Shown here one piece after another: positions 8,360-61,065 of a DNA stretch of 64,000 nucleotides. The position numbers were made by a program, and so were the translations under genes. Each line of letters begins with the position of its first letter. Positions within the stretch are counted from its first letter, which is position 1. Under the pieces are notes generated by a model, which worked only from the letters and a program-made list of their open reading frames with translations, made no database searches and was not told the origin of the DNA. The stretch is from contig NW_027590190.1 in NCBI RefSeq assembly GCF_964213995.1, positions 186,001 to 250,000 on the forward strand, given 5' to 3'. The DNA comes from Mustelus asterias. Lineage: Eukaryota.

Positions 8360-9286
8360 TCACTCGTGAACTTGCTGGTGTCTCAGCAGCTCCGATGAAA
8401 CTCTGAAACGCTTTCCACACTGAGAGCAGGTGAATGGCCTCTCCCCTGTGTGAACTCGCTGGTGTGTCTGCAGGTCAGATGAGTTCGTAAATCCCTTCCC
8501 ACACTGAGAGCAGATGAATGGTCTCTCCCCAGTATGAACTCGCTGGTGTATCTGCAGGTGGGATGACCGAATGAATCCCTTCCCACACTGAGAGCAGGTG
8601 AACGGCCTCTCCCCTGTGTGACGGCGCTGGTGTCTCTGCAGGTCGGCTGACTGAGTGAATTCTTGCCCACACTGAGAGCAGATGAACGGTCTTTCCCCAG
8701 TGTGAACTCGTTCGTGCGTCCGCAGGTTGGATGAGTTCATGAATCCCTTCCCACACTGAGAACAGGTGAATGGCCTCTCCCCAGTGTGAACTCGTTGGTG
8801 TCTCTGCAGGCTGAATGACCGAGTGAATCCCTCTCCACACTGAGAGCAGGTGAACGGCCTCTCCCCAGTGTGAACTCGCTGGTGTCTCTGCAGGTGGGAT
8901 GATCGAGTGAATCCCTTCCCACACTGAGAGCAGGTGAATGGTCTCTCTCCAGTGTGAACTCGCTGGTGTGTCAGCAGGCTGGATGACTGAATGAATCCCT
9001 GCCCACATTGAGAGCAGGTGAATGGCCTCTCCCCAGTGTGAACTCGCTGGTGTGACTGCAGGTTGGATAACCGAGTGAATCCCTCCCCACACTGCGAGCA
9101 GGTGAATGGCCTCTCCCCTGTGTGACGTAGCTGGTGTGATTGCAGGTTGGATACCCGAGTGAATCCCTTCCCACACTGAGAGCAGATGAACGGCCTCTCC
9201 CCAGTGTGGCTGCGCCGATGATCTTCCAGCAGGGATGGGTATCTGTATCCCTTCCCACAGTCCACACATTTCCATGGTTTCTCCAT
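8360..9286 (-). CDS. C2H2 zinc-finger protein, 11 fingers, no effector domain
   Basis: Uninterrupted ORF from Kozak ACCATGG (MEKPWKC) to TGA, 308 aa = 11 x 28; probable splice acceptor TTTTACAG at ~9638-9645. Confidence 0.9.
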
Positions 9287-9774
9287 GGTGCAGGTGTCCT
9301 TACCTCTCTCTTGAGTGAACAATTCGTTGAAACTTCGTCCACACACAGAACAAGATTACAGTCTCTCCCCGTTGTGAATGGTGTGATATTTATTCAGACT
9401 GTGTAACTGGTTAAAGCTCTTTAGTCAGTGCATTGGAACACTCTCACTCAAGTGTGTCAGTGTGTTGATGCTTTTTCACTCACACTGACATTTCAAATCT
9501 TTTCAAATCGACAGACTGGACAATCATTTCTCCTTCTGGATTCAAAGTTCGATGGTATTGAGGTCCCAAGGAATATGACTCTGTCAGATCTAGACGTGAA
9601 GTTTGAGATTTCAGCCTGTGATTCCTCTTTCAATATCCTGTAAAATGAGTTTACAAAAGTCATCAGTGTCAGTACAGGATAGAAATTCAGAACAGACTAT
9701 TTCTCTGGAACATTCTTTCCTCTCTCATTCCCCAAAAGCTGTAAATCTCCATCCCACACACTCTCTCCCCATTC

Positions 9775-21377: not shown

Positions 21378-22578
21378 TCACTGGTGAACTCGCTGGTGTC
21401 TCACCAGGTTGTATGACTGGGTGAATCCCTTTCCACACATTGAACAAGTGAACGGCTTCTCCTCACTGTGAACTTGTTGGTGTCTCAGCAGAATGGATGA
21501 CCGGGTGAATCCTTTCCCACACTCAGTGCAGGTGAACGGTTTGTCCTCAGAGTGATTTCGCTGGTGTGCGAGCAGAAGTTTTCTGCTTTTAAAGCTCTTC
21601 TCACAGTCAGAACATCTGAACGGTCTCTCATTTGTGTGAACAAGTTGGTGTGAAGTGAGAGAAGATAAACAAGTGAATCTCTTCCCACACACAGGGCAGG
21701 TGAACGGCCTCTCCCCAGTGTGAATTCGCTGGTGTACAGTGAGGTCGCCTGATCGCCTGAAGCCAGTCCCGCAGTGAGAACACATGAATGGTCTCTCGTC
21801 AGAGTGAGCACGTTGATGGTGATGCAGTTCCTCAGAACTTTTATAGCCTTTCCCGCAGTCTGGACATTTAAACAGTCTCTCTTCACTGTGAACTCGTTGG
21901 TGTTTCTGCAGGTTGGATGTTCGGTTAAATCCTTTCCCACATTCAGAGCAGGTGAATGGCCTCTCTCCAGTGTGAATGCGCTCATGTGCCACAAGGTGGA
22001 ATGATGTCCTGAATCCCTTCTGGCAGTGGGAGCAGCTGAACGGTGTGGAACCGGTGTGAATGTACTGGTGCTCCCGCAGTGTGCGTGGAGTTTTAAAACT
22101 CTTTCCACACTCAGTGCATTTAAACTCTTTCCTGTCGGTGTGAACTCGCTGGTGTCTCTGCAGGGCAGAGAAATCTGTGAATCCCTTCCCACACACGGAG
22201 CAGGTGAAAGGCCTCTCCCCTGTGTGAATGTGCCGATGTATCAGCAGGGCCGATGACTGAGTAAATCCTTTTCCACATTCGGAGCAGGTGAACTGCCTCT
22301 CCCTGCTGTGAATGCGCTGGTGAATCAACAGGCCAGCCGTCTGAGTGAATCCCTTCCCACACACAGGGCAGGTAAAAGGTCTCTCTCCAGTGTGAGTGCG
22401 TCGGTGATTTTCCAGGTCAACTGGGGAATTGAATCCTTTCCCACAGTCTCCACATTTATACGGTCTCTCCCTGATGTGACTGCGCTTGTGTCTTGACAGG
22501 CCAGACGATCGTTTGAAGCCTTGTCCACACACATGTGTATGTTTTCTCCCCACTGTGAATGGTGCTTTTTTCTTCCAT
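21378..22578 (-). CDS. C2H2 zinc-finger gene, 13 intact fingers; N-terminal frameshift (possible young pseudogene)
   Basis: ATG at 22578 ([16 protein letters not shown]) is out of frame with the 13-finger ORF 21378-22553 because of an indel in TGTGTG at ~22535; acceptor TTTTCAG at ~22685-22692. Confidence 0.7.
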
Positions 22579-22959
22579 GTTTAATGGCCTATGATATTTA
22601 GATCCTGATGAATCGAGGCACTCTGTCTGATCTTGATGTGATCCTTGATTTACAATTGTCTGTAATTCCTCACCTTCTAATCCCCTGAAAAATGAATTGA
22701 AAACAGAAAGAGGGAAACATAAGAGACAAGCCATTATAACACAAAGGCAAGATGTGAAATTGAGCTGAATGAATCTGGTAAATTGTGGGATTAGGAATAG
22801 GAAAAAGGATATGAAAGCTGCTGGATTGTCATAAAGCTTCAAACGGTTTACCAGTGCACTGAGGGAAAGGAACCCTTCACCCTTCAGAGCCCACAACAAA
22901 AATCCAGCCTTTCTGTGTGAAGAGGGAGAGGTCGGGAGGAGGGTGACGGAGAGAGACTT

Positions 22960-37621: not shown

Positions 37622-38107
37622 TGTAAACTCCTTTTCCAGAATATCTGCAGACGGGCGATTCAAACCAAACGTCTCGGGATCTGACAGTGTCACATGATTC
37701 TTCAGGATCTGAATATCAAAGGCCCATGAATGTGGAAGGAGAAACGTTTGCCTATTTTGTCTTTGGGAAATTATTCAACATCAGTGTGACTGGAAAAGCC
37801 CCGAGACACAGACATCTCAGTTACTTTTCCACAGTCAGCTGGAACAGAGCTTTAACCAGTCACACAGCGTGAAAAGAAATAGCACATTTTCATCAGGTAG
37901 ACACCGCACTCGTGTTCTTTGTGTGGACCTGGTTTCAACTGATTATATAACCTGGAGAGACATGAGGACACCTGCACCATGTGAACAAGGAGCAGCAATA
38001 GGCCATTCGGCCCCACGGGCCAGTTCCGCCATTTAATAACATCATGGCTGATCTGATAGTGAGCTCAAATCTGCATCCCGCCTACACCCGATAGCCTGTC
38101 AATAATC

Positions 38108-39256
38108 ATGGAGAAACCGTGGAAATGTGCGGACTGTGGGACGGGATTCAATTACCCGTCTGAATTGGAAACCCATCGACGTATTCACACTGGGGAGAGA
38201 CCATTCACCTGCTGTGTGTGTGGGAAGGGATTCACTCAGTCATCCAGCCTGTACACACACCAGCATGTCCATACTGGTGAGAGGCCATTCACCTGTCTTC
38301 AATGTGGGAAGGGATTTAATGCTTTATCAAACCTCCGGACTCACCACCAGGTTCACTCTGATCAGAGACCGTTTAAATGTTGTGAGTGTGAGAAGAGCTT
38401 TAAAAGCAGAAAGGATTTGTTGATTCACCAACGCACTCACACTGGGGAGAGGCCATTCATCTGCAACATGTGTGGTAAGGGATTCACTCAGTCATCCCAC
38501 CTCCTGACACACCAAAGTGTTCACACTGATCAGAGACCATTTAAATGTTCTGATTGTGAGAAGAACTTTAAAAGTAAAAAGGATTTACTGATTCACCAGC
38601 GCACTCACACTGGGGAGAGGCCGTTCATCTGCTCCGTGTGTGGGAAGGGATTCACTTGTTCATCCCAGCTCCTGAAACATCGATTTGTTCACACAGATCA
38701 GAGACCTATCAATTGTCCTGAATGTGATAAAACATTTAAAAGCAAAAAGGATCTTCTGAAACACCAGCACACTCACACTGGGGAGAGGCCATTCACCTGC
38801 TCTCTCTGTGAGAAGGGATTCACTCGGTTAGCTCACCTTCTGAGACACCATCGAGTTCACACTGGGGAGAGGCCGTTCACCTGCCCTGTGTGTTGTCAGG
38901 AATTCATTGATACATCTGACCTTCTGATACACCGGCGAGTTCACACTGGGGAGAGACCGTACACTTGCCTCCTGTGCGGCAAGAGATTCACTCAGTCAGC
39001 CCACCTGACTACACACCAACTTGTTCACACTGATCAGAGACCTTTTGAATGTTCTGATTGTGAGAAGAGATTTAAAAGTAAACAGAATCTGCTGAAACAC
39101 CGGCGAGTTCACACTGGGGAAAGGCCGTTCAACTACTCCATGTGTGGGAAGGGATTCGCTCAGTCAAACAACCTGCTGAAACACCAGCAAGTTCACAGGC
39201 GACAGCAGGGGTTGGATTCTGCTGTTATTGCTGCTGTGAATCACACCCAGGACTGA
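38108..39256 (+). CDS. C2H2 zinc-finger protein, 13 fingers (last has C>Y) plus C-terminal tail
   Basis: Intact 382-aa ORF MEKPWKC...HRRQQGLDSAVIAAVNHTQD. Confidence 0.9.
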   Translation: MEKPWKCADCGTGFNYPSELETHRRIHTGERPFTCCVCGKGFTQSSSLYTHQHVHTGERPFTCLQCGKGFNALSNLRTHHQVHSDQRPFKCCECEKSFKSRKDLLIHQRTHTGERPFICNMCGKGFTQSSHLLTHQSVHTDQRPFKCSDCEKNFKSKKDLLIHQRTHTGERPFICSVCGKGFTCSSQLLKHRFVHTDQRPINCPECDKTFKSKKDLLKHQHTHTGERPFTCSLCEKGFTRLAHLLRHHRVHTGERPFTCPVCCQEFIDTSDLLIHRRVHTGERPYTCLLCGKRFTQSAHLTTHQLVHTDQRPFECSDCEKRFKSKQNLLKHRRVHTGERPFNYSMCGKGFAQSNNLLKHQQVHRRQQGLDSAVIAAVNHTQD

Positions 39257-43559: not shown

Positions 43560-43900
43560 CCGCGGGTCAGAAAGTGCTCTATCCTCACTATAGGGAGAGA
43601 CTGCGCAGGCGTGGGGGAAATGCTGTGATTGGAGCATGCGCGGTCCGGGTGTCGGTCTGTTCGATCAACATCAGGTGAGAAGCAACTGGAGAGGAATGGG
43701 GCTGGGGAAGAAATGGAACCGTCTTGTGGGGCCGGGGGAGCGGGGAAACTCATTAGTAAAACATGCTCATGCCTCAGAGCCCGAATCCCAAACTCCCGGG
43801 TCCCGCGGGAGGCGCCGCCGACACTTTTGTTCATCCCGGGTTAACGGCCGCCATCTTTCCCGGGGCAGCAGGGCGCATGCGCAGGGAGCCCAGTCCCTCT
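43560..43900. promoter_or_regulatory. CpG promoter of the ZNF gene at 44893
   Basis: ATTGGAGCATGCGC, YY1-like GGCCGCCATCTT, GCGCATGCGCA, in the same order as at 24 kb. Confidence 0.7.
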
Positions 43901-43950
43901 GGGGCTTTGTTACCTTTTCTCCTTCATCCCTTTTCCCAGTCCCAGGCTGC

Positions 43951-44544
43951 AGGCTCCAGTTGGCAATGTGTGCATCCAGTGTGGAGGAGGCTCCAGCTGG
44001 CAATGTGTGCATCCAGTGTGGAGGAGGCTCCAGCTGGCAATGTGTGCATCCAGTGTGGAGGAGGCTCCAGCTGGCAATGTGTGCATCCAGTGTGGAGGAG
44101 GCTCCAGCTGGCAATGTGTGCATCCAGTGTGGAGGAGGCTCCAGCTGGCAATGTGTGCATCCAGTGTGGAGGAGGCTCCAGCTGGCAATGTGTGCATCCA
44201 GTGTGGAGGAGGCTCCAGCTGGCAATGTGTGCATCCAGTGTGGAGGAGGCTCCAGTTGGCAATGTGTGCATCCAGTGTGGAGGTGGCTCCAGTTGGCAAT
44301 GATGTGCATCCAGTGTGGAGGAGGCTCCAGCTGGCAATGATGTGCTTCCAGTGTGGAGGAGGCTCCAGTTGGCAATGTGTGTATCCAGTGTGGAGGAGGC
44401 TCCAGTTGGCAATGTGTGTATCCAGTGTGGAGGAGGCTCCAGTTGGCAATGTGTGCATCCAGTGTGGAGGTGGCTCCAGTTGGCAATGATGTGCATCCAG
44501 TGTGGAGGTAGCTCCAGTTGGCAATGATGTGCATCCAGTGTGGA
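43951..44544. repeat. 37/38-bp minisatellite, ~16 copies
   Basis: Unit GGCTCCAGYTGGCAATG(A)TGTGCATCCAGTGTGGAGGA, contiguous with no spacers. Confidence 0.97.
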
Positions 44545-44892
44545 CATGGCGACAGCTGCCAGGGTCACTTTCACCTAGTGCCGGTCCCACCCATTCCCAG
44601 GTTCATTCAGCTCAATTTCACAACCTGCCTTTTTGTTTCTGCAGGTTCTCTCTCACTCCTTTTTTTCTGTTTTAAATTCTTTCCACAGAGTATCGGGAGG
44701 GGAGGATTTACAGTCAGGAAACAACCTCATCATCGCATCAAAGTCTGACAGCCGCTGAATGCATCCTAACCTGAATATCGTCAGATTTTGAACACAGAAC
44801 TGAAAAGCTCCATTCACAGTGGAGAGAAACTGTACATGTGTTCTGCGTGTGGACAAGGCTTCAGCCTGTCGAAACGTTAGTGCAGTCACTCC

Positions 44893-45483
44893 ATGGAGAA
44901 ACCGTGGAAATGTGTGGACTGTGGGAAGGGATTCCGTTACCCATCCAAACTGGAAATCCATCGTCGTAGTCACACTGGGGAGAGACCATTCTCCTGCTCT
45001 GAGTGTGAGAAGGGGTTCGTTAGGTCCTCCCACTTGCTGACACACCAGCAAATTCACACTGGGAAGAGACAATTCACCTGCACCGAATGTGGGAAGGGAT
45101 TCACTCAGTCATCCAAACTGCTGTCACACCAGCGAGTTCACACTGGGGAGAGACCATTCACCTGCTCCGAATGTGGGAAAGGATTCACTGCTTCATCTTA
45201 CCTGCTGACACACCAACGTGTTCACACTGATGAGAGACCTTTTAAATGCTCAGACTGTGGGAAGTGCTTTAAAAGATCTGGTGTACTGATGCGCCATCAA
45301 TGTGCTCACACTGACGAGAGGCCATTCAGATGCAGACACTGTGGGACTGGATTCAGACAATCATATAACCTCACTGTACATCAGCGAGTTCACACTGGGG
45401 AGAGGCCGTTCACCTGCTCTGATTGTGGCCAGGGATTCTCTCAGTCATCCAACCTTCTGAAACACCAACGAATCCACAATTAA
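44893..45483 (+). CDS. C2H2 zinc-finger protein, 7 fingers
   Basis: Intact 196-aa ORF starting MEKPWKC; acceptor TTTCCACAG at ~44688. Confidence 0.88.
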
Positions 45484-47662: not shown

Positions 47663-48435
47663 TCCTTTTGCTGCTTAATGCTCAGTGACAACATATGGAA
47701 GCCCTGGTCAGAGCTGATTGTGCAGTGAGGTTATCAATGGGTTTTGAATGTAAATTCACACACAATGAAGATCAGAATTATGTGAGTTTTTTTCCTGCTC
47801 CCCCGTCTGAACCAATAACCGTCTGCACCTATTTACTAAATATAAAAATGCTTTATGAAATGAGCAGTTTCCAATAAAATGAGTAAAACCCGAAACCAAA
47901 GACCACCAGCATCTCATTCACTTCGTTTAACAAAGTGGAATGTGTTTAATCTACTTTGATGACTGTTTTTATCCAGAACGTCACTGACACAGAATATTAG
48001 AACATGTTTTATTTGATGGTGGGCTAATATAACTATCAGGGGATTTGATATAAACCCTGTCAAACATTACATTTTCAATCCAGCTTTCCAAAGAGAGAAT
48101 ACAGTCGGCAGCAACTTCGACTTATCGACAGTCAGTGAAAACAGAATGTCAGTGAGGCAGTCACACACTGAGACCACACACGAGTCAGAGCCTTTCTACA
48201 ATATGCTTATTTTAGAAATAAAGAACTTATAAACTTCCCAAGGCAGCTTCTCCTGCAAGTGCAGGAGATGTAACAGCTGCACTTTCACCTCCTCCCAACT
48301 CACCATCCAGGGGTTACACATACGTGCCTCAATCCCAAATGTGTCAAATAGTTTGAAATCACATTTTGGAAGTGGAGGAAGGGAGATTTATTTAAAATAA
48401 ATTGACACAATACATTTTATATATAGATTCTAAGT

Positions 48436-48646
48436 TTACGCAGAGAGTGGTTGGGGTGTGGAATGGACTGCCTGCAGTGATAGTGGAGTCAGACACTTTA
48501 GGAACATTTAAGCGGTTATTGGATAGGCACATGGAGCACACCAGGATGATAGGGAGTGGGATAGCTTGATCTTGGTTTCAGATAAAGCTCGGCACAACAT
48601 CGTGGGCCGAAGGGCCTGCTCTGTGCTGTACTGTTCTATGTTCTAT
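48436..48646 (+). mobile_element. CR1 3' end
   Basis: TTTACGCAGAGAGTGGTTGGGGTGTGGAAT..GAAGGGCCTGCTCTGTGCTGTACTG(TTCTATG)n. Confidence 0.85.
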
Positions 48647-49665: not shown

Positions 49666-50571
49666 TTAGTGTGAGTGCATTGGTGAGCCAGCAGGTTGAA
49701 CCCCAGGCACGGAGCAAGTGAACGGTCTCTGTCCAGTGTGAACTCGCTGCTGAGCAGTGAGGTTGGATGACCGATTGAATCCTTTCCCACACACCGAGCA
49801 GCTGAATGGCCTCTCTCCAGTGTGAACTCGCTGGTGTAAAACAAGATTGGATGACTGCCTGAAACTCTTTCCACAGTCAGTGCAGCTGAATGGCTTCTCC
49901 TCAGTGTGAATTCGTTGGTGTCTCAGCAGGGTGGGTAAAACTGTGAATCCCTTCCCACACATGGAACAAGTCAATGGTCTCTCCCCAGTGTGAATCCGTT
50001 GGTGTGCAACGAGAGAGGTTGCCTGTCTGAAACTCTTTCCACAGCAAGTGCAGCTGAATGGCTTTTGAGTGTGAATCCGCTGGTGTGACAGCAGGTGGGA
50101 TGACCCAGTGAATCCCTCCCCACACATGGAGCAGGTAAAAGGCCTCTCCCCAGTGTGAACTCGCTGGTGTAATGTGAAGTTGGATGACTGAGTGAATCTC
50201 TTTCCACACTCAGGGCAGGTGAACAGTCCCTCCCCAGTGTGAGTGCGTTGGTGTGCCGTGAGTGCTGAAGAATGCCTGAACCTCTTTCCACAGGTAGTGC
50301 AGCTGAATGGCTTCTCCTCGGTGTGAATTCGCTGGTGTGACAAAAGGCCAGATAACTGACTGAAAGCCTTCCCACACACAGAGCAGGTGAATGCCCTCTT
50401 CCCCGTGTGAACCCGCTGGTGTAATGATAGGTTGGATGACTGAGTGAATCCTTTCCCACATATAGAACAGGTGAATGGCCTCTCCCCAGTGTGACTGCGT
50501 TGATGGTTTTCTAGCAGGGATGGATAATTGAATCCTTTCCCACAATCTTCACATCCCCACCGTTTCTCCAT
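49666..50571 (-). CDS. C2H2 zinc-finger protein, 9 intact fingers, decaying 3' end
   Basis: ACCATGG start (MEKRWGC); finger 10 has H>Q; a deletion/frameshift in finger 11; finger remnants run to 49587. Confidence 0.75.
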
Positions 50572-50941
50572 GGTGCCGGTGTCCGTGTGTCTCTCCAGGT
50601 TGGACAATCAGTTCAAGTCTTGTCCAAACATTGAACAAATGTATGGTTTTTCCTCACCTTGTATTTTACAATGTTTTCTCAAGCTGAATAACTGGTTAAA
50701 ACTCTTTCCACAGTCAGTTCACTGGAACACTCACTCGGGTGTGTGTGTGTGTGTCTCGGTGCTTTTCCAGTCACTGTTGTTTGAAATGTGTTCTTTTGGA
50801 ACAGTTGATCATTTATCCTTCCACATTCAAAGACCGATGATATTCAGATCCTGATGAATGGAGTTACTCAACCAGAGCTTGATCTGACGTTTCACATCTG
50901 CAAATCCTTCGCTTCTGATCTCCTGTAGAAACAGTTCACAA

Positions 50942-53745: not shown

Positions 53746-55951
53746 ACTTGAGCTGGAAAAGGCTATTGATTGCAGACCTACCTCAGTTGATCTTTCTCTA
53801 CACCCTAGCTATGACTGTATCATGACATTCTGCACTCTCTCCTTCCCAATGTACAGTATGCTTTGTCTGTATAGCGCACAAGAAACAATATTTTTCACTG
53901 TATACTAATACATGTGACAATAATAAATCAAACAGACCCCACAGAGAAACTAACTTTATAACAATCAGGATAGAATTAAACACACTGGTATGTTGGGATG
54001 CCCTGTGGTTGTGAAAGGCTCTGTAGAAATGTAAGTTTATAAATTGAAGATTTCTGTTCTCTGATCTTGTTATCTGGAACTGAATTGATTTCAGCCACCC
54101 CCAACTTGCCATTTATTAAATTCACTTTGGTTCAGACAAGACTTTAACCAATTAAGACAAAGGCAGAATTCTCTGGATAGTAAATTTAAAAAGTTTATTC
54201 AATGAAAAAGGTTCACTGAACCACTTTAAGACATTGGCTTTTATAACTTGATGTGGGTGATCAGTCTGGAAGGTTAACCCTCTCTGGCTCCTTCTTTGAC
54301 AGGAATTTCCTTAAAACTCAGCCTCGGGACTCTTCAGTATTTGGTTCACAGGGAAGACCTTTGGAACCTCTACTTTTATCCCCCTACATCAGAGTTGGGC
54401 CTGTTTAACATGCCAATTGGTCAATTTGATGAGATTAATTCAATTGAATCCCCAATATTTACACCACCGTTTCCCTTCATCTTAGTCAGGAATACAACAT
54501 AATTGTTTCAGACTATCCCTTTACCCGATTCCATACAATCCCTTGTTCATACAGTTTCAAATATTGAAGAGTTTGAAGGTCCCTCTCGCCAGTACATTTA
54601 TCTTCATTGCACATTCTTTACATACACAGCAATAAACTTTTACATTTTTACAGTAAATAAAACCCAGCCTTTTACTATAACTACTGATTCATTAATTGTA
54701 ACTTAATACAATCATCTGTTCCTGACTGGTGGCTAATTAATACAGGATTCTTTAATTCATTTGGTTAATACAAGATTCACTGGTTCAAAAAGACACACGA
54801 TGGAAGACAATAGGTTTCTTTCTTATTCACCTTGATCAGACTGAACAATCGACCTTATTCTTGAGCCAGATTTGATGGAATATAATGTCCTGTATCTTAT
54901 CAAAATGACAGAAGAAATTCTTAGTTTAAACAATTTCTGCTGGTTATGCAGTTTCCACAAGCATTTGGGTGAATACAGCATTCATTTTAAAAATAAAGCT
55001 TCATTCACATGTCAGAGTTTAAGATTGTTTCCTTGACCTTGTTACTTAGAATGTTCAAGGAACAATTCAGCACAGTAACAGGCACTTGGGCCCACCGAGC
55101 CTGTGCCAATAGAGCTTCAATCCCTCTGTTCACCTCCTGTCTGTCTATCAAGATACACCTTGAACATTGCTAAAGTGCCTGCTTCCACCCGCTTCACAGG
55201 CAGTGCATTCCAGGCACCCAGCACCTCTACAGAGTCATAGAGGTTAACAGCATGGAAACAGGCCCTTTGGCTCAACTTGTCCATGCCACCCCTTTTTTTA
55301 AATGACTAAGCGAGTCCGAATTGCCCGCATTTAGCCCATATCCCTCAATAGCAATCTTACTCGGAACTGTCTAAATGTTTATCAAAAGACAAAATTGTAC
55401 CCGCCTCTACTACTACCTCTGGCAGCTTGTTTCAGACACTCGCCACCCTTTGTGTGAAAAAATTGCCCCTCTGGACCCTTTTGTATCTCTCCCCTCTCAC
55501 CTTAAACCTATGGCCTCTAGTTTTAGACTTCCCTACCTTTGGGAATAGATATTGGCTATCTAGCTGATCTATACCCCTCATTATTTTATAGACTTCTATA
55601 GGATCACCCGTAAGCCTCCTATGCTCCAGAGAAAAAAGTCCCAGTCTATCCAGCCTCTCCTTATAACTCAAACCATCAAGTCCTGGTAGCATCCTAATAA
55701 ATCTTTTCTGCATTCTTTCCAGCTTAGTAATATCCTTTCTATAATAGGGTGACCAGAACTGTATACGGTATTACAAGTGTGGCCTTAACAATGTCTTGTG
55801 CAACTTCAACAAGACATCCCAACTCCTGTATTCAATGTTCTGACCAATGAAACCAAGCATGCCGAATGCCTTCTTCACCGCTCTGTCCATCTGTGACTCC
55901 ACTTTCAATGTATACTGGTATACATTGTAAGACTGTATTCAATGTAATACT

Positions 55952-56033
55952 GGTAGCGTGGCTGAGCGGTCTAAAGCACTAGATTTAAGCTTCAGTCTTT
56001 CCGGAGGCATAGGTTCAAATCCCACTACTACCA
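55952..56033 (+). tRNA. tRNA-Leu-derived copy (Leu-TAG type, anticodon now TAA); probably a pseudogene
   Basis: 82 nt colinear with vertebrate GGTAGCGTGGCCGAGCGGTCTAAGGCGCTGGATTTAGGCTCCAG..CCCACCGCTGCCA, with many transitions. Confidence 0.85.
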
Positions 56034-56051
56034 GAATTGATGTCTGTTTAA

Positions 56052-56122
56052 GCATTGGTGGTTCAGTGGTAGAATTCTCGCCTGCCACGCGGGAGGCCCG
56101 GGTTCTATTCCCGGCAAATGCA
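56052..56122 (+). tRNA. tRNA-Gly(GCC) copy with 2 substitutions
   Basis: Differs from the canonical vertebrate sequence only at TTCG>TTCT (T loop) and CCAATGC>CAAATGC (acceptor stem); T5 at 56133-56137. Confidence 0.9.
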
Positions 56123-58859
56123 AAGCCCCTTCTTTTTGAAGGGCCTGTTTCCTGTGCTGTACTATAATGAGCTATGAACATGTACATCCTAGAAATCTTT
56201 GTTCTATAACTCTCCCCGATGCCTACCATTAACTGGTTCAATCAACCAAAATGCATCACCTCGCACTTATCTAAATTAAACTCCATCTGCCATTCGTTAG
56301 CCCACTGGCTCAATTGATCAAGAACCCATTGCAATCCGAGCTAACCTTCTTCACTATCCACAACGTCACCCACCTTGGTGTCATCTGCAAACTTACTAAT
56401 CATGCCTCCTAAATTCTCATCCAAATCATTAATATAAATGACAAATAACAGTGGACGCAGCACCGATCCCTGAGGCACACCACTGGTCACAGGCCTCCAG
56501 TTTGAAAAACAACCACCCACAATCACCCTCTGTCTTCTGTCATCAAGCAATTTTGTATCCATTTGGCTGCCTCACCCTGGCTCCTGTGAGATTTAATCTT
56601 ATGCAACAACCTACCATGTGGTACCTTGTCAAAGGCCTTGCTAAAGTCCATGTAGACAACATCAACTGCACTGCCCTCATCTACCTTCTTGGTTACCCCT
56701 TCAAAAAACTCAATCAAATTTGTGAGATATGATTTTCCACTCACAAAGCCATGCTGACTGTCCCTAATCAGTCCTTGCCTCTCTAAATGCCTGTACATCC
56801 TGTCTCTCAGAATACCTTCGACCAGCGTACCCACTACAGATGTGAGGCTCACCAGCCTGTAGTTCCCAGGCTTTTCTCTGCAGCCCTTTCTAAACAAAGG
56901 CACAACATTTGCCACCCTCCAATCTTCAGGCACCTCACCTGTGGCTGTCAATTCAAATATCTCTGCGAGGGGACTCGCAATTTCCTTCCTAGCCTCCCGC
57001 AACATCCTGGGACACACTTCATCAGGTCCTGGGGATTTATCTACCTTGATGCGCTTTAAAACTTCGAGCACATCCTTCACTGTTATATGCACACTCCTCA
57101 AGACATCACTATTTATTTTCCCAAGTTCCCCAACATCCATGCCTTAACAGTAATTACTGATGAGAAATATTCATTTAGGATCTCACACATCTCTTGTGGA
57201 TCTGCACGTAGATGACTTTGTTGATCCTTAAAAGGCCCTACTCTCTATACTCTGCATTTGTAGAATCTCTGGATTCTCCTTTGCCTTATCTGCCAAAGCA
57301 ATCTCATGTCTCCTTTTTGCCCTCCTGATTTCTCTTAACTCTACTCCTACACCCTGTATACTCTTCAAGGGATCCGCTTGATCCCAGCTGCCTATGCATG
57401 CCATGTGCCTACTTCTTCTTCTTGACCAGGGCCTCAATATCCCAAGTCATCCAGGGTTCCCTACTTCTACTAGCCTTGCCCTTCACTCTAAGAGGAATGT
57501 GCTTATCCTGAACACTGGTTAACACACTTTTGAAAGTCTCCCACTGACCAGACGCCCGTTTGCCTTCCCACAGACTCCCCCAATTAACTTTTGAAAGTTC
57601 CTGCCTGATACCATCAAAATTGGCCTTGCCCCAATTTAAAATTTTAACCTTTGGGCCAGACCTATCATTCTCCATAGCTATCTTAAAACTAATAGAATTA
57701 TGGTCACTGGTCCCAAAGTGATCCCTCACTAACACTTCTGTCACCTGCCCTTCCTTATTTCCCAAGAGGAGGTCAAGTTTTGCCCCTCTCTAGTCGGGCC
57801 ATCCACATACTGAATGAGAAATTCCTCCTGAATACACTCAACAAATTTCTCTCCATCCAAACCTCTAATACTATGGCTGTCCCAGTCAATGTTGGGAAAG
57901 TTAAAATCCCCTACTATTACCACCCTATTTTTTTTGGAGCTATCTGTCATCTCCTTACATATTTGCTCCTCAATTTCCCACCGACTATTTGGAGGCCTAT
58001 AGTACAACCCTATCAAAGTGACTTCCCCTTCTTATTACTCAATTCTACCCATACAGACTCAGTGGGTGAACCCTCGGATATATCCCCTCTCAGTACTGCT
58101 GTGGTGTTTTCCCTCATCAAAAGTGCAGCTCCCCCTCCTCTCTCACCTCCTGTTCTATCTTTCCTATAGCATCTGTACCCTGAAACATTGAGCTGCCAGT
58201 CCTGTCCCTCCCTCAGCCATGTTTCAGTAATAGCTATAATATCCCAGTCCCATGTACCCCTCCATGCCCTGAGTTCATCTGCCTTGCCTGCCAGGCCTCT
58301 TGCATTGAAATAAGTGCACTTTAATCTGGACCTCCCTTTCTCTCTGCTCTGCTTTTGACTGACCTGTCTAGTACTAGAATTATTGACACTGTCTTTACTA
58401 TTTAATGTGCTCTCTTTAACTTCTGTCCTCAATCTTCTCTTCTGTCTTCCTATTGCTTTGGGTCCCACCACCCCCTCCCCGCCCACCCCACCCCGCCAAA
58501 CTAGTTTAAACCCCCCCGACTCGCTCTCACAAATCTCTCCGTCAGGATATTAGTCCCCCTCCAGTTCAGGTGTAACCCATCCCTCTTGAACAGGTCATCC
58601 CTTCCCCAGAAGAGATCCCAATGATCCACAAATCTAAATCCCTGCCCACCTGCACCAGCTCTCAAGCCACATATTCATCTGCCTCATCTTCCTGTTCCTA
58701 CTCTCACTAACACGTGGCACCGGCAGTAGTCCAGAAATTACCATCTTCGAGGTCCTGCACTTTAGTCTGCTGCCTAACTCTCTAAATTCACTCTTCAGGA
58801 CCTCATCCCTTTTCACCATGTATGTGAAAACTTTCCCCACATGTTTCCCCAAACCTCAT

Positions 58860-59688: not shown

Positions 59689-60642
59689 TCAATTGTGAAC
59701 TCGCTGGTGTCTCAGCAGGGTAGATGACTGAGTGAATTCTTTCCCACAGTCAGAGCAGGCGAATGGTCTCTCCCCAGTGTGGACTCGCTGGTGTCTTCTC
59801 AGGTTGGACAAATCTCGGAACTGCTTCCCACAATCAGAGCAGGGAAATGGTCTCTCCCCAGTGTGGACTCGCTGGTGTTTTTGCAGAGTGGATGAATCTT
59901 TGAATTTCTTCGCACACACTGTGCAGATGAACGGCCTCTCCTCAGTGTGAATTCGGTGGTGTGTCAGCAGATGGGTTGAATTTTTGAATCCCTTCCCACA
60001 GTCAGAACAGATGAATGACCTCTCCTCGGTGTGAACCTGTCGGTGTCGTATCAGGTTGGATAACCATCTAAACCTTCTTGCGCAGTGAGAGCAGCTGAAT
60101 TGTTTCTGCTCAGTGTGAACTCGCTGGTGTGTCTGCAGGTTGGATGACTGACTGAATCCCTTCCCACACTGAGAGCAGGTAAATGGCCTCTCCCCAGTGT
60201 GAGCTCGCTGGTGTGTCAGCAGATCGGAGAACTGATTGAATCTCTTCCCACACTCAGAGCAGCTGAATGGCCTCTCCCCAGTGTGAATTCGCTGGTGTGT
60301 CAGCAGGTTGGATAACTGAGTGAATCCCTTCCCACACTCAGAGCAAACAAATGGCCTCTCCCCAGAGTGAACTCGCTGATGTATCTTCAGGGTGGATGAA
60401 TGTTTGAAACCTTTCCCACATGCAGTGCAGGTGAATGGCCTTTCCTTAGTGTGAATTCGCTGGTGTGTCAGCAGGTGGGATGAATTTGTGAATCCCTTCC
60501 CACAATCAGAGCAGGTAAACGGCCGCTCCCCAGTGTGAATGCGTCGGTGAGTTTCTAGTTTTGAGGGGGTTATGAATCTCTTTCCGCAGTCCTCACATTT
60601 CCATGGTTTCTCCGTGGTGCAGGTGTCCTTGTGTCTCTCCAT
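59689..60642 (-). CDS. C2H2 zinc-finger protein, 11 fingers
   Basis: Intact ORF from AACATGG (MERHKDTCTTEKPWKC); acceptor TTTTACAG at ~60936-60943. Confidence 0.9.
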   Translation of the reverse strand: MERHKDTCTTEKPWKCEDCGKRFITPSKLETHRRIHTGERPFTCSDCGKGFTNSSHLLTHQRIHTKERPFTCTACGKGFKHSSTLKIHQRVHSGERPFVCSECGKGFTQLSNLLTHQRIHTGERPFSCSECGKRFNQFSDLLTHQRAHTGERPFTCSQCGKGFSQSSNLQTHQRVHTEQKQFSCSHCARRFRWLSNLIRHRQVHTEERSFICSDCGKGFKNSTHLLTHHRIHTEERPFICTVCAKKFKDSSTLQKHQRVHTGERPFPCSDCGKQFRDLSNLRRHQRVHTGERPFACSDCGKEFTQSSTLLRHQRVHN

Positions 60643-61065
60643 GTTCAACAATCAAATTAGGTTTCTGCACACAGGACACCCGGCTCCAAATGGGAATGTT
60701 TTTTCAAGCTGTGTAACTGGTTAAAACTGGAACACTCAGTTCAGAGTGTGTGTGTTGATGCTTTTCTGGTCACACTGATAGTTAATAACTGCTGAAGCTG
60801 ATAGAGCAGACAATTATTTCTCCATCTAGATTCAGAGGCCACTGATGTTCACTTTGCAATGAATCAACTAAATCTTTCAGATCCTGATGCGACGTTTGAT
60901 TTAAGATTTCTGGCTTAAATCCTCACTTCTAACATCTGTAAAAGAAGTTGACAAAAGTAATCAGCGTTAGTACAGGATAGAAATTCAGAACAGACAATTC
61001 TAGTTCCTCTGGAGCACGTTTTCCTCTCTCATTCCCCAAAATCTGTAAATTTCATTCGCACACAT

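Follow-up and report, generated by a model that had tools for sequence, protein, structure and literature searches.

What is the origin of two tRNA-like sequences that stand in tandem inside a broken retrotransposon: one dicistronic gene, two successive insertions, or one event that joined RNAs of separate origin? The case is found in a 64,000-nucleotide stretch of Mustelus asterias DNA, here called the window (assembly GCF_964213995.1, contig NW_027590190.1, positions 186,001 to 250,000, forward strand), where a 255-bp insert at 55911-56165 interrupts a CR1-type long interspersed nuclear element (LINE). The reading favoured here, with a probability of roughly 0.78, is that the insert arose in a single retroposition and is now dead: a LINE tail was joined to a pre-tRNA-Gly and a pre-tRNA-Leu, whose genes are unlinked, when a CR1-type reverse transcriptase (RT) jumped twice onto oligo(U) ends. 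There was one insertion, with a 4-bp duplication, and the modules derive from separate genes, each ending at a terminator T-run; the same end-to-end anatomy recurs at many other loci. Taken alone, the locus is a dead by-product, and it is the class that constitutes the finding.

Boundaries and parts of the insert

Positions 55600-56500, used as query, retrieve paralogs that lack the insert and join both flanks at a single AATG, their left and right matches overlapping by exactly 4 bp; in one of them (L158) the common flank extends beyond the LINE end. Because the empty sites carry AATG once, it is a true 4-bp target site duplication (TSD), which confirms the preliminary description of this DNA in its claim that a minus-strand LINE is split by a plus-strand insert with AATG on both sides. 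A search for the empty-site pattern within the window returned 2 distant LINE copies only. The parts are as follows.

55907..55910, plus strand: left AATG copy of the TSD, single in empty-site paralogs L139-L143, L145 and L158
55911..55951, plus strand: 41-nt 5' junction filler, patched from local sequence (7-mer cover against shuffles)
55952..56033, plus strand: tRNA-Leu copy, from a degenerate Leu(TAG)-family gene (ARAGORN, Rfam, paralog comparison)
56034..56049, plus strand: 3' trailer of the Leu gene with a T3 end, part of the terminator (trailer type of Leu genes L035-L037, L042, L048, L052, L054, L057 and L058)
56050..56051, plus strand: two nucleotides unlike the Leu trailer and unlike the Gly array leader, which ends in TGT
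56052..56122, plus strand: tRNA-Gly(GCC) copy without 5' leader, 2 differences from the tandem-array gene
56123..56137, plus strand: 3' trailer of the Gly gene including the T5 terminator (same kind of trailer as in the 1.8-kb Gly array of C2058 and C1)
56138..56165, plus strand: 28-nt CR1-type LINE 3' end, 5'-truncated, with no T microhomology to the trailer
56166..56169, plus strand: right AATG copy of the TSD (empty-site paralogs)

The two isotypes first proposed were recovered by ARAGORN as tRNA-Leu at 55951-56034 and tRNA-Gly(GCC) at 56052-56122, the sole 2 tRNA genes of the window, and they score 37.3 and 58.1 bits with Rfam RF00005 (gathering score 29). The Leu anticodon is TAA today, although the gene derives from a Leu(TAG/AAG) family. 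A- and B-box-like motifs in both tRNAs would provide internal promoters for RNA polymerase III (Pol III). The interval 56034-56051 had been described as an 18-nt spacer without a T4 run; its longest T-run is indeed T3, but it is no spacer, being made up of the 3' trailer that belongs to the Leu gene and 2 further nt, and these last two nucleotides (56050..56051) are likely untemplated. The Gly trailer does end in T5 (56133-56137), followed by the CR1-type terminus, whose tail type also ends a LINE fragment at about 48420-48646.

The scrambled 5' junction with a hairpin and repeats was likewise upheld. The filler contains a 10-bp snap-back hairpin, two 9-nt direct repeats and 7 nt that are antisense to part of the Leu variable arm, and 38 of its 41 nt lie within 7-mers that occur nearby (shuffle mean 8.2; 0/2000 shuffles at 38); the T at its end possibly comes from the Leu leader. 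In 2 of 4 public runs (X1 and X4; 2 samples, one study) contigs span the left junction together with the Leu half and show no difference there, and runs X2 and X21, in which the insert is uncovered, are uninformative. Of the sequence words, public RNA runs contain only 6-9%, and so give no evidence of expression.

Source genes of the two tRNA parts

The Gly part, trailer included, corresponds to a tandem array with a 1.8-kb unit, of which C2058 has 35 and C1 has others; the array contains no Leu. The exact trailer variant of 56123..56137 is seen in dispersed copies only and probably represents an older or unassembled state of the array. Each array unit (G000:C2058; G000:C1:82.9-83.1 Mb) holds two tRNA-Gly(GCC) genes about 215 bp apart. 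The Leu trailer, that is, the first 16 nt after the Leu part, is of the type found in a Leu(TAG/AAG) gene family that lies in DNA-duplicated units. Like a chimeric retrogene, the insert thus has parts from separately encoded RNAs in the same orientation, the Gly array and the Leu family being unlinked, together with a LINE terminus as its 3' part and the AATG duplication seen against empty sites.

Compared with the intact gene L043, the Leu half shows 14/82 differences, against 2/71 between the Gly half and its array gene (Fisher p=0.006). Nine of the 14 are also present in L035 (G000:C166:237609), the closest Leu paralog found, so these changes predate retroposition and the template was already degenerate, as the preliminary description had supposed; apparently it was still transcribed. 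G-to-A hypermutation of the Leu half was considered and rejected, given those nine changes common to a genomic paralog and the CpG decay that accounts for 5/14. Often degenerate Leu(TAG/AAG) genes were observed at L035-L037, L041, L042, L045, L046, L048, L052, L054, L055, L057 and L058, in DNA-duplicated units with flanks 70-80% identical, and their trailers recur in many retrocopies, which suggests that pseudogene-like Leu copies are transcribed in the germline.

Copies of the whole insert

The whole insert is present at 4 places (C158, C89, C252 and C210), which have a 3.2 kb flank in common at identities of 99.9, 99.2 and 95.2%. Such flanks mark the 4 copies as DNA duplications, and their setting in a zinc-finger gene cluster indicates one insertion event copied by segmental duplication. 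Among 40 candidates scored there was no two-tRNA match outside the 4 copies and no Leu-only intermediate, in keeping with a single event.

The idea that the insert is a proto-SINE, the start of a short interspersed nuclear element (SINE) family, had to be abandoned. A search for tailed copies yielded the 4 segmental duplicates only, with their common flank, where a family would show independent retroposed copies with unrelated flanks; SINE-like amplification of the insert is therefore rejected. A family would also need a transcript running through to the LINE tail, and here T5 precedes the tail, so that Pol III would be expected to stop before it.

A genome-wide class of tRNA fusions

The locus is one member of a large class spread over the genome, a point that the preliminary description overlooked. 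For unbiased sampling, the Gly 3' end and trailer alone served as query, and 65 exact matches were obtained, 36 in array units and 29 dispersed; subtraction of two duplicates of the 55911-56165 locus and one other duplicate left 26 independent events. Every one of them is a sense fusion made at the T-run; the partner is a SINE start in 19/26, a 5'-truncated LINE or LINE tail in 5/26, and a second tRNA followed by a SINE in 2/26. In the Gly::LINE fusions L097 and L108 the LINE part is sense ORF2. A SINE start within 6 nt would occur by chance at <0.001 per copy. The 26 further Leu matches that were retrieved divide into 15 genes and 11 copies in which Leu plus trailer is joined to a SINE start. 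A free-standing dispersed copy of tRNA and trailer was found neither among the 26 Gly events nor among the 11 Leu copies outside gene units.

The size of the class can be gauged from a pattern that places a T-loop 26-56 nt upstream of the SINE head motif, with 1059 matches genome-wide against 276,580 SINE motifs. The first 100 matches were classified; they all lie on C1-C3 and are therefore not a random sample. An adjacent tRNA reaches the Rfam gathering score in 24 of them, and 38 have a tRNA if degraded ones are included (relaxed ARAGORN and inspection by eye); of the others, about 21 consist of the 5' part of a second SINE and about 14 of the 5' part of the same SINE, the remainder being unexplained or chance matches. 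Extrapolation would give 250-400 loci with exact-motif tRNA::SINE fusions (95% range 170-510), a raw fusion rate of about 0.1-0.15% of SINE copies. Since the exact SINE-head pattern recovers only 4/18 known Gly::SINE fusions, the class likely comprises a thousand or more loci. Short tRNA::LINE-tail fusions recur as well (L094, L176 and L203 among 71 matches). Altogether the fusions involve 10 isotypes, with leaders, trailers and some introns, and have up to four parts.

Several features of the partner elements were noted alongside. In L065, L066, L070, L082, L086, L087, L092 and about 14 more loci, 5' fragments of a second SINE are joined to another SINE's start; they mostly end near nt 97-123, commonly with extra T residues, and no remainder follows downstream. 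They are possibly short terminated Pol III transcripts captured in the same way. Many SINEs seemingly carry an inverted 5' piece, head-to-head, in a twin-priming-like arrangement (e.g. G000:C1:14096937). Near-identical LINE 3' ends with intact CpGs occur in about 26 of the 71 LINE-tail matches (e.g. L169, L171, L186, L188), which suggests a young, possibly active family. The SINE part has grown into tandem repeats in L118/L123 (a head unit of about 42 bp in L118) and in L100 (a unit of about 18 bp). The SINEs of these fusions are presumably HE1 or SacSINE1. For sharks and rays, HE1, with its partner LINE HER1, and SacSINE1 are listed (PMC3747384).

Signs that the captured RNAs were nascent precursors

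The preliminary description had proposed a retroposed, unprocessed Pol III transcript, and the anatomy of the class supports this. The TGT leader of the array is kept in 10/20 full-length Gly copies (background 0.021); CCA is present in 0/12 Gly::SINE joins, 9/12 of which have the array-type trailer; and a T-run (TTT) occurs in 33/38 tRNA linkers against 8/22 controls (p=1e-4). In L257, an Arg(TCG) copy, ARAGORN finds a 19-nt intron retained. By eye, the Pro copies L242, L233 and L239 have inserts at the same position, and that of L242 is probably a retained intron. In these four Pro and Arg(TCG) retrocopies, the inserts measure 17-20 nt and lie at the anticodon-loop intron position. As for the trailer, it ends in no more than T3 in 12/26 Gly class members, where Pol III could read through into the partner.

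The 3' ends of the dispersed Gly copies are complete; 20/26 are full length and 6/26 are 5'-truncated. Four of these six start within 2 nt of A58 (p about 2.5e-4 against a uniform distribution), a figure to be read with the small n and with a +/-2 window picked after the data had been viewed. The modification m1A58 blocks reverse transcription. In human cells it is added on precursors (10.64898/2026.05.17.725798). If the A58 stops hold, genomic DNA records a tRNA modification on precursors.

Multimers of varying order and isotype are also found: Gly-Leu (L038), Gln-Leu (L047), Gly-Leu(CAG) (L109), Gly-Val (L114) and Asn-Glu (L262), with L101 as a further case. In L165 (G000:C1:20352045) four parts follow each other, namely a SINE fragment, an internally deleted Leu, a Val and a full SINE with its tail. 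Inner tRNAs have kept their leaders in L047 and L165. A further upstream module was seen in 1/38 tRNA::SINE fusions and 2/11 Leu fusions; that this second-module rate exceeds the raw first-jump rate is only a hint.

Proposed mechanism and alternative explanations

The proposed model is that the LINE RT would prime on the LINE 3' end, copy 28 nt and jump to the UUUUU end of pre-tRNA-Gly; after copying to the Gly 5' end and adding about 2 nt, it would jump to the UUU end of pre-tRNA-Leu. Each jump would take place at a template 5' end, probably aided by untemplated A residues that pair with UUU-OH. For the R2 RT, jumping requires an untemplated overhang of 1-2 nt (PMC8857657). The 5' junction would then be closed through snap-back and microhomology repair, and later copying of the locus would be due to segmental duplication of the zinc-finger gene cluster. 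Joining most likely took place during reverse transcription and not between RNAs, as the leaders, the SINE start sites and the T-runs suggest; serial template switches are the better of the two options that the preliminary description had left standing. In addition, the host repeat is contiguous across the whole composite at 5 of the 9 loci that have repeats on both sides (35 tested).

Several observations weigh against this model. At the other 4/9 loci with repeats on both flanks the host is not contiguous. When 19 Gly chimeras were put to a blind TSD test, the whole composite showed no excess (mean 4.42 against 4.21 for swapped ones, a value reached by 203/1000 swaps), and the downstream element alone a slight one (4.68 against 4.44; 25/1000), which probably stems from the T/C-rich trailer and tail. 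At the locus itself, a Gly without leader and a tail with an internal 5' end are joined, a configuration that ligation could use too, and TAA on both sides of Gly plus tail formally permits a nested insertion. An antisense control pattern gave 601 matches against 1059 in sense, dominated, by eye, by inverted SINE pieces. Finally, DNA alone cannot tell which enzyme joined the parts, and the jump is an inference.

Among the alternatives, it could be argued that the RNAs were ligated first, by an RtcB-type activity as in human U6/L1, and that the fused RNA was retroposed in one pass. Sense orientation and complete 3' ends are predicted equally by ligation, RtcB does join U6 to L1 RNA (PMC6789731), and the LINE partners, truncated internally with 0-2 nt of microhomology, could be cleaved 5'-OH ends. 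RtcB, however, needs a 2',3'-cyclic phosphate and a 5'-OH, and a 3'-OH or 5'-triphosphate dramatically cuts ligation (PMC6789731), whereas UUU-3'OH ends are common to Pol III transcripts (PMC5737608). Of the 26 partners, 5 are internally truncated LINEs and 19 begin at the SINE start; together with the leaders on the inner tRNAs of L047 and L165, the SINE starts point to primary triphosphate ends. Ligation is disfavoured because RtcB rejects both kinds of end, and it is held to be unlikely, though least clearly so at this locus. Considerably less probable is a history of two insertions, in which an older retrocopy of Leu and trailer received the Gly plus tail chimera in its 3' end with a 2-3 bp duplication. 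It would agree with the TAA repeats, with the greater divergence of Leu and with the slightly raised downstream-only TSD statistic, but neither a free-standing tRNA copy nor a Leu-only paralog turned up in the sets described above; the Leu changes common to L035 are older than retroposition, and at least 5 other tRNA-tRNA multimers are known here.

Slightly less again can be said for a capture of the tRNAs while the 5' junction was being repaired, whether a repair polymerase acted or separate cDNAs were joined, without an RT jump. The 41-nt filler does show snap-back and templated-patch repair at this junction, and snap-backs and 'extra template' RNAs are described at the 5' junctions of R2 insertions (PMC11371274). 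Yet after repair capture or twin priming one would expect both orientations and breakpoints inside the tRNA, the picture seen in the tRNA/L1 chimeras of humans (10.1101/2025.02.02.635956), and all 26 Gly fusions are in sense and begin at the terminator. Dicistronic pre-tRNAs occur in yeasts. A dicistronic Leu-Gly gene as source of one pre-tRNA, later retroposed, was the other option of the preliminary description, and it is very improbable indeed. Lacking a T4 run, the sequence between the tRNAs might let Pol III read through. Against this, that sequence is a Leu trailer and the Gly array has no Leu; the exact pattern of a T-loop, N18-48 and the Gly(GCC) 5' end has 3 matches genome-wide, all copies of this insertion (the C210 copy escapes it through a substitution); a tRNA lies directly 3' of the Leu gene at 0/15 Leu-family gene loci; the other dimers vary in order and isotype; and no source with both tRNAs, the same 18-nt interval and no retro tail was found in the assembly. 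Within the limits of the assembly and of exact pattern matching, the dicistronic source is refuted, which leaves room for an unassembled or diverged one.

Under the template-jumping model, the insert is a copy without evident function, and the class is a by-product through which the tails of LINEs and SINEs keep acquiring new Pol III heads. A broader proposal, for which the odds seem about even, is that jumping in chains from one nascent Pol III transcript with a La-type oligo(U) end to the next is routine for CR1-group elements here. These elements would leave at least 1000 pre-tRNA concatemers that record germline-transcribed tRNA genes and pseudogenes, their processing state (leader, intron, trailer) and m1A58 RT stops, with T3-ended members as ready-made new or dimeric SINE heads.

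Host LINE and surrounding window

The host element, whose clade name CR1 is taken from a likeness of its C-terminus and tail beside its RT and endonuclease domains, has Pfam matches on the minus strand to RVT_1 (56523-57143) and to an endonuclease domain (58013-58549). Of 12 scanned open reading frames (ORFs) of the window, 6 are C2H2 zinc-finger arrays, so that the window is a zinc-finger gene cluster.

55230..55910, minus strand: 3' portion of the host CR1-type LINE (ORF2 C-terminus and 3' end), by translation; dozens of dispersed copies at 93-97%
56170..58549, minus strand: 5' portion of the host LINE, with RT and endonuclease remnants (Pfam PF00078, PF03372)
8360-9355, 21378-22580, 38063-39256, 44881-45483, 49666-50607 and 59689-60651: C2H2 zinc-finger array ORFs (Pfam scan)

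The cluster is segmentally duplicated on several small contigs. At 43594-44602 six overlapping open frames lie on both strands, the one scanned having no Pfam match; this is probably a low-complexity tandem repeat.

Significance and comparison with known systems

The gain of tRNA heads by SINEs, and the origin of dimeric SINEs, are usually inferred from finished families, and here unamplified intermediates are apparently found in bulk. The step thus becomes measurable: the jump rate per insertion, which acceptor is chosen and how likely a second jump is. For telling template jumping from RNA ligation, the class is better suited than U6/L1, since RtcB should act poorly on the ends of pre-tRNAs and SINEs. 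In practical terms, tRNA finders accept these retrocopies, which would make counts of tRNA genes too high. A literature search of partial coverage did not find the class described for cartilaginous fish, which does not establish its absence from print; the main text of a paper on CR1-group elements (PMC13343379) does not contain the word 'tRNA'.

Chimeras of U6 with L1, L2, RTE and their SINEs (Doucet et al. 2015, PMC4476161) resemble the present ones in that an oligo(U) Pol III RNA lies in sense upstream of a stringent LINE or SINE, with short TSDs and, in 40 platypus U6-L2 cases, a 5'-truncated small-RNA part; template switching was proposed for them. The differences are that the partners here are SINE fragments and pre-tRNAs belonging to at least 10 isotypes, likely in hundreds of cases or more, and in multi-step chains. 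In the portion of that survey available, one unconfirmed CR1 case is given and no cartilaginous fish is covered. Double template jumps that unite three transcripts in one insertion, as here, are known from the WEIRD/Mg-SINE/MGL chimera of Magnaporthe (Gogvadze et al. 2007, PMC2104539). In that fungus, 34 elements include one that is tripartite, and the switches fall at internal consensus sites, whereas the joins here are end-to-end and small samples yielded at least 7 three-part elements and a four-part one.

In human tRNA/LINE-1 chimeras (Law and Burns 2025, 10.1101/2025.02.02.635956) the tRNA is co-inserted at the 5' side of the LINE, as in M. asterias; they comprise 21 loci, mostly with antisense tRNA halves, and twin priming has been invoked. 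The fusions described here are in contrast sense and usually full length, with a trailer, often a leader and sometimes an intron, and none of the 26 Gly events is an antisense half. PittSINE (Suh et al. 2017, PMC5729268) offers a parallel of another kind, as a switch of the CR1 RT from TguSINE1 to tRNA-Asp was proposed to have put a new tRNA head on a CR1-tailed SINE. It was inferred once, from a successful family, and not from intermediates. A transcript of the 55911-56165 insert, unlike PittSINE, would be expected to terminate before its tail.

Template jumping by the R2 RT is a subject on which Upton et al. (10.1101/2021.04.30.442027) are said to have worked. As in the present model, this non-LTR RT makes end-to-end jumps with 1-2 untemplated nucleotides (PMC8857657, PMC11371274), and non-coding 'extra templates' and snap-backs occur at its 5' junctions (PMC11371274). 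Those data are biochemical or come from engineered cells, and the extra templates are almost always U6; the record described here is natural, germline and CR1-type, and pre-tRNAs dominate the sets examined (U6 was not among the searches). Template-switch chimeras were thus already known, and what is new is the scale, the apparently obligatory fusion, the intact precursor anatomy, the multi-step chains and the possible m1A58 stops.

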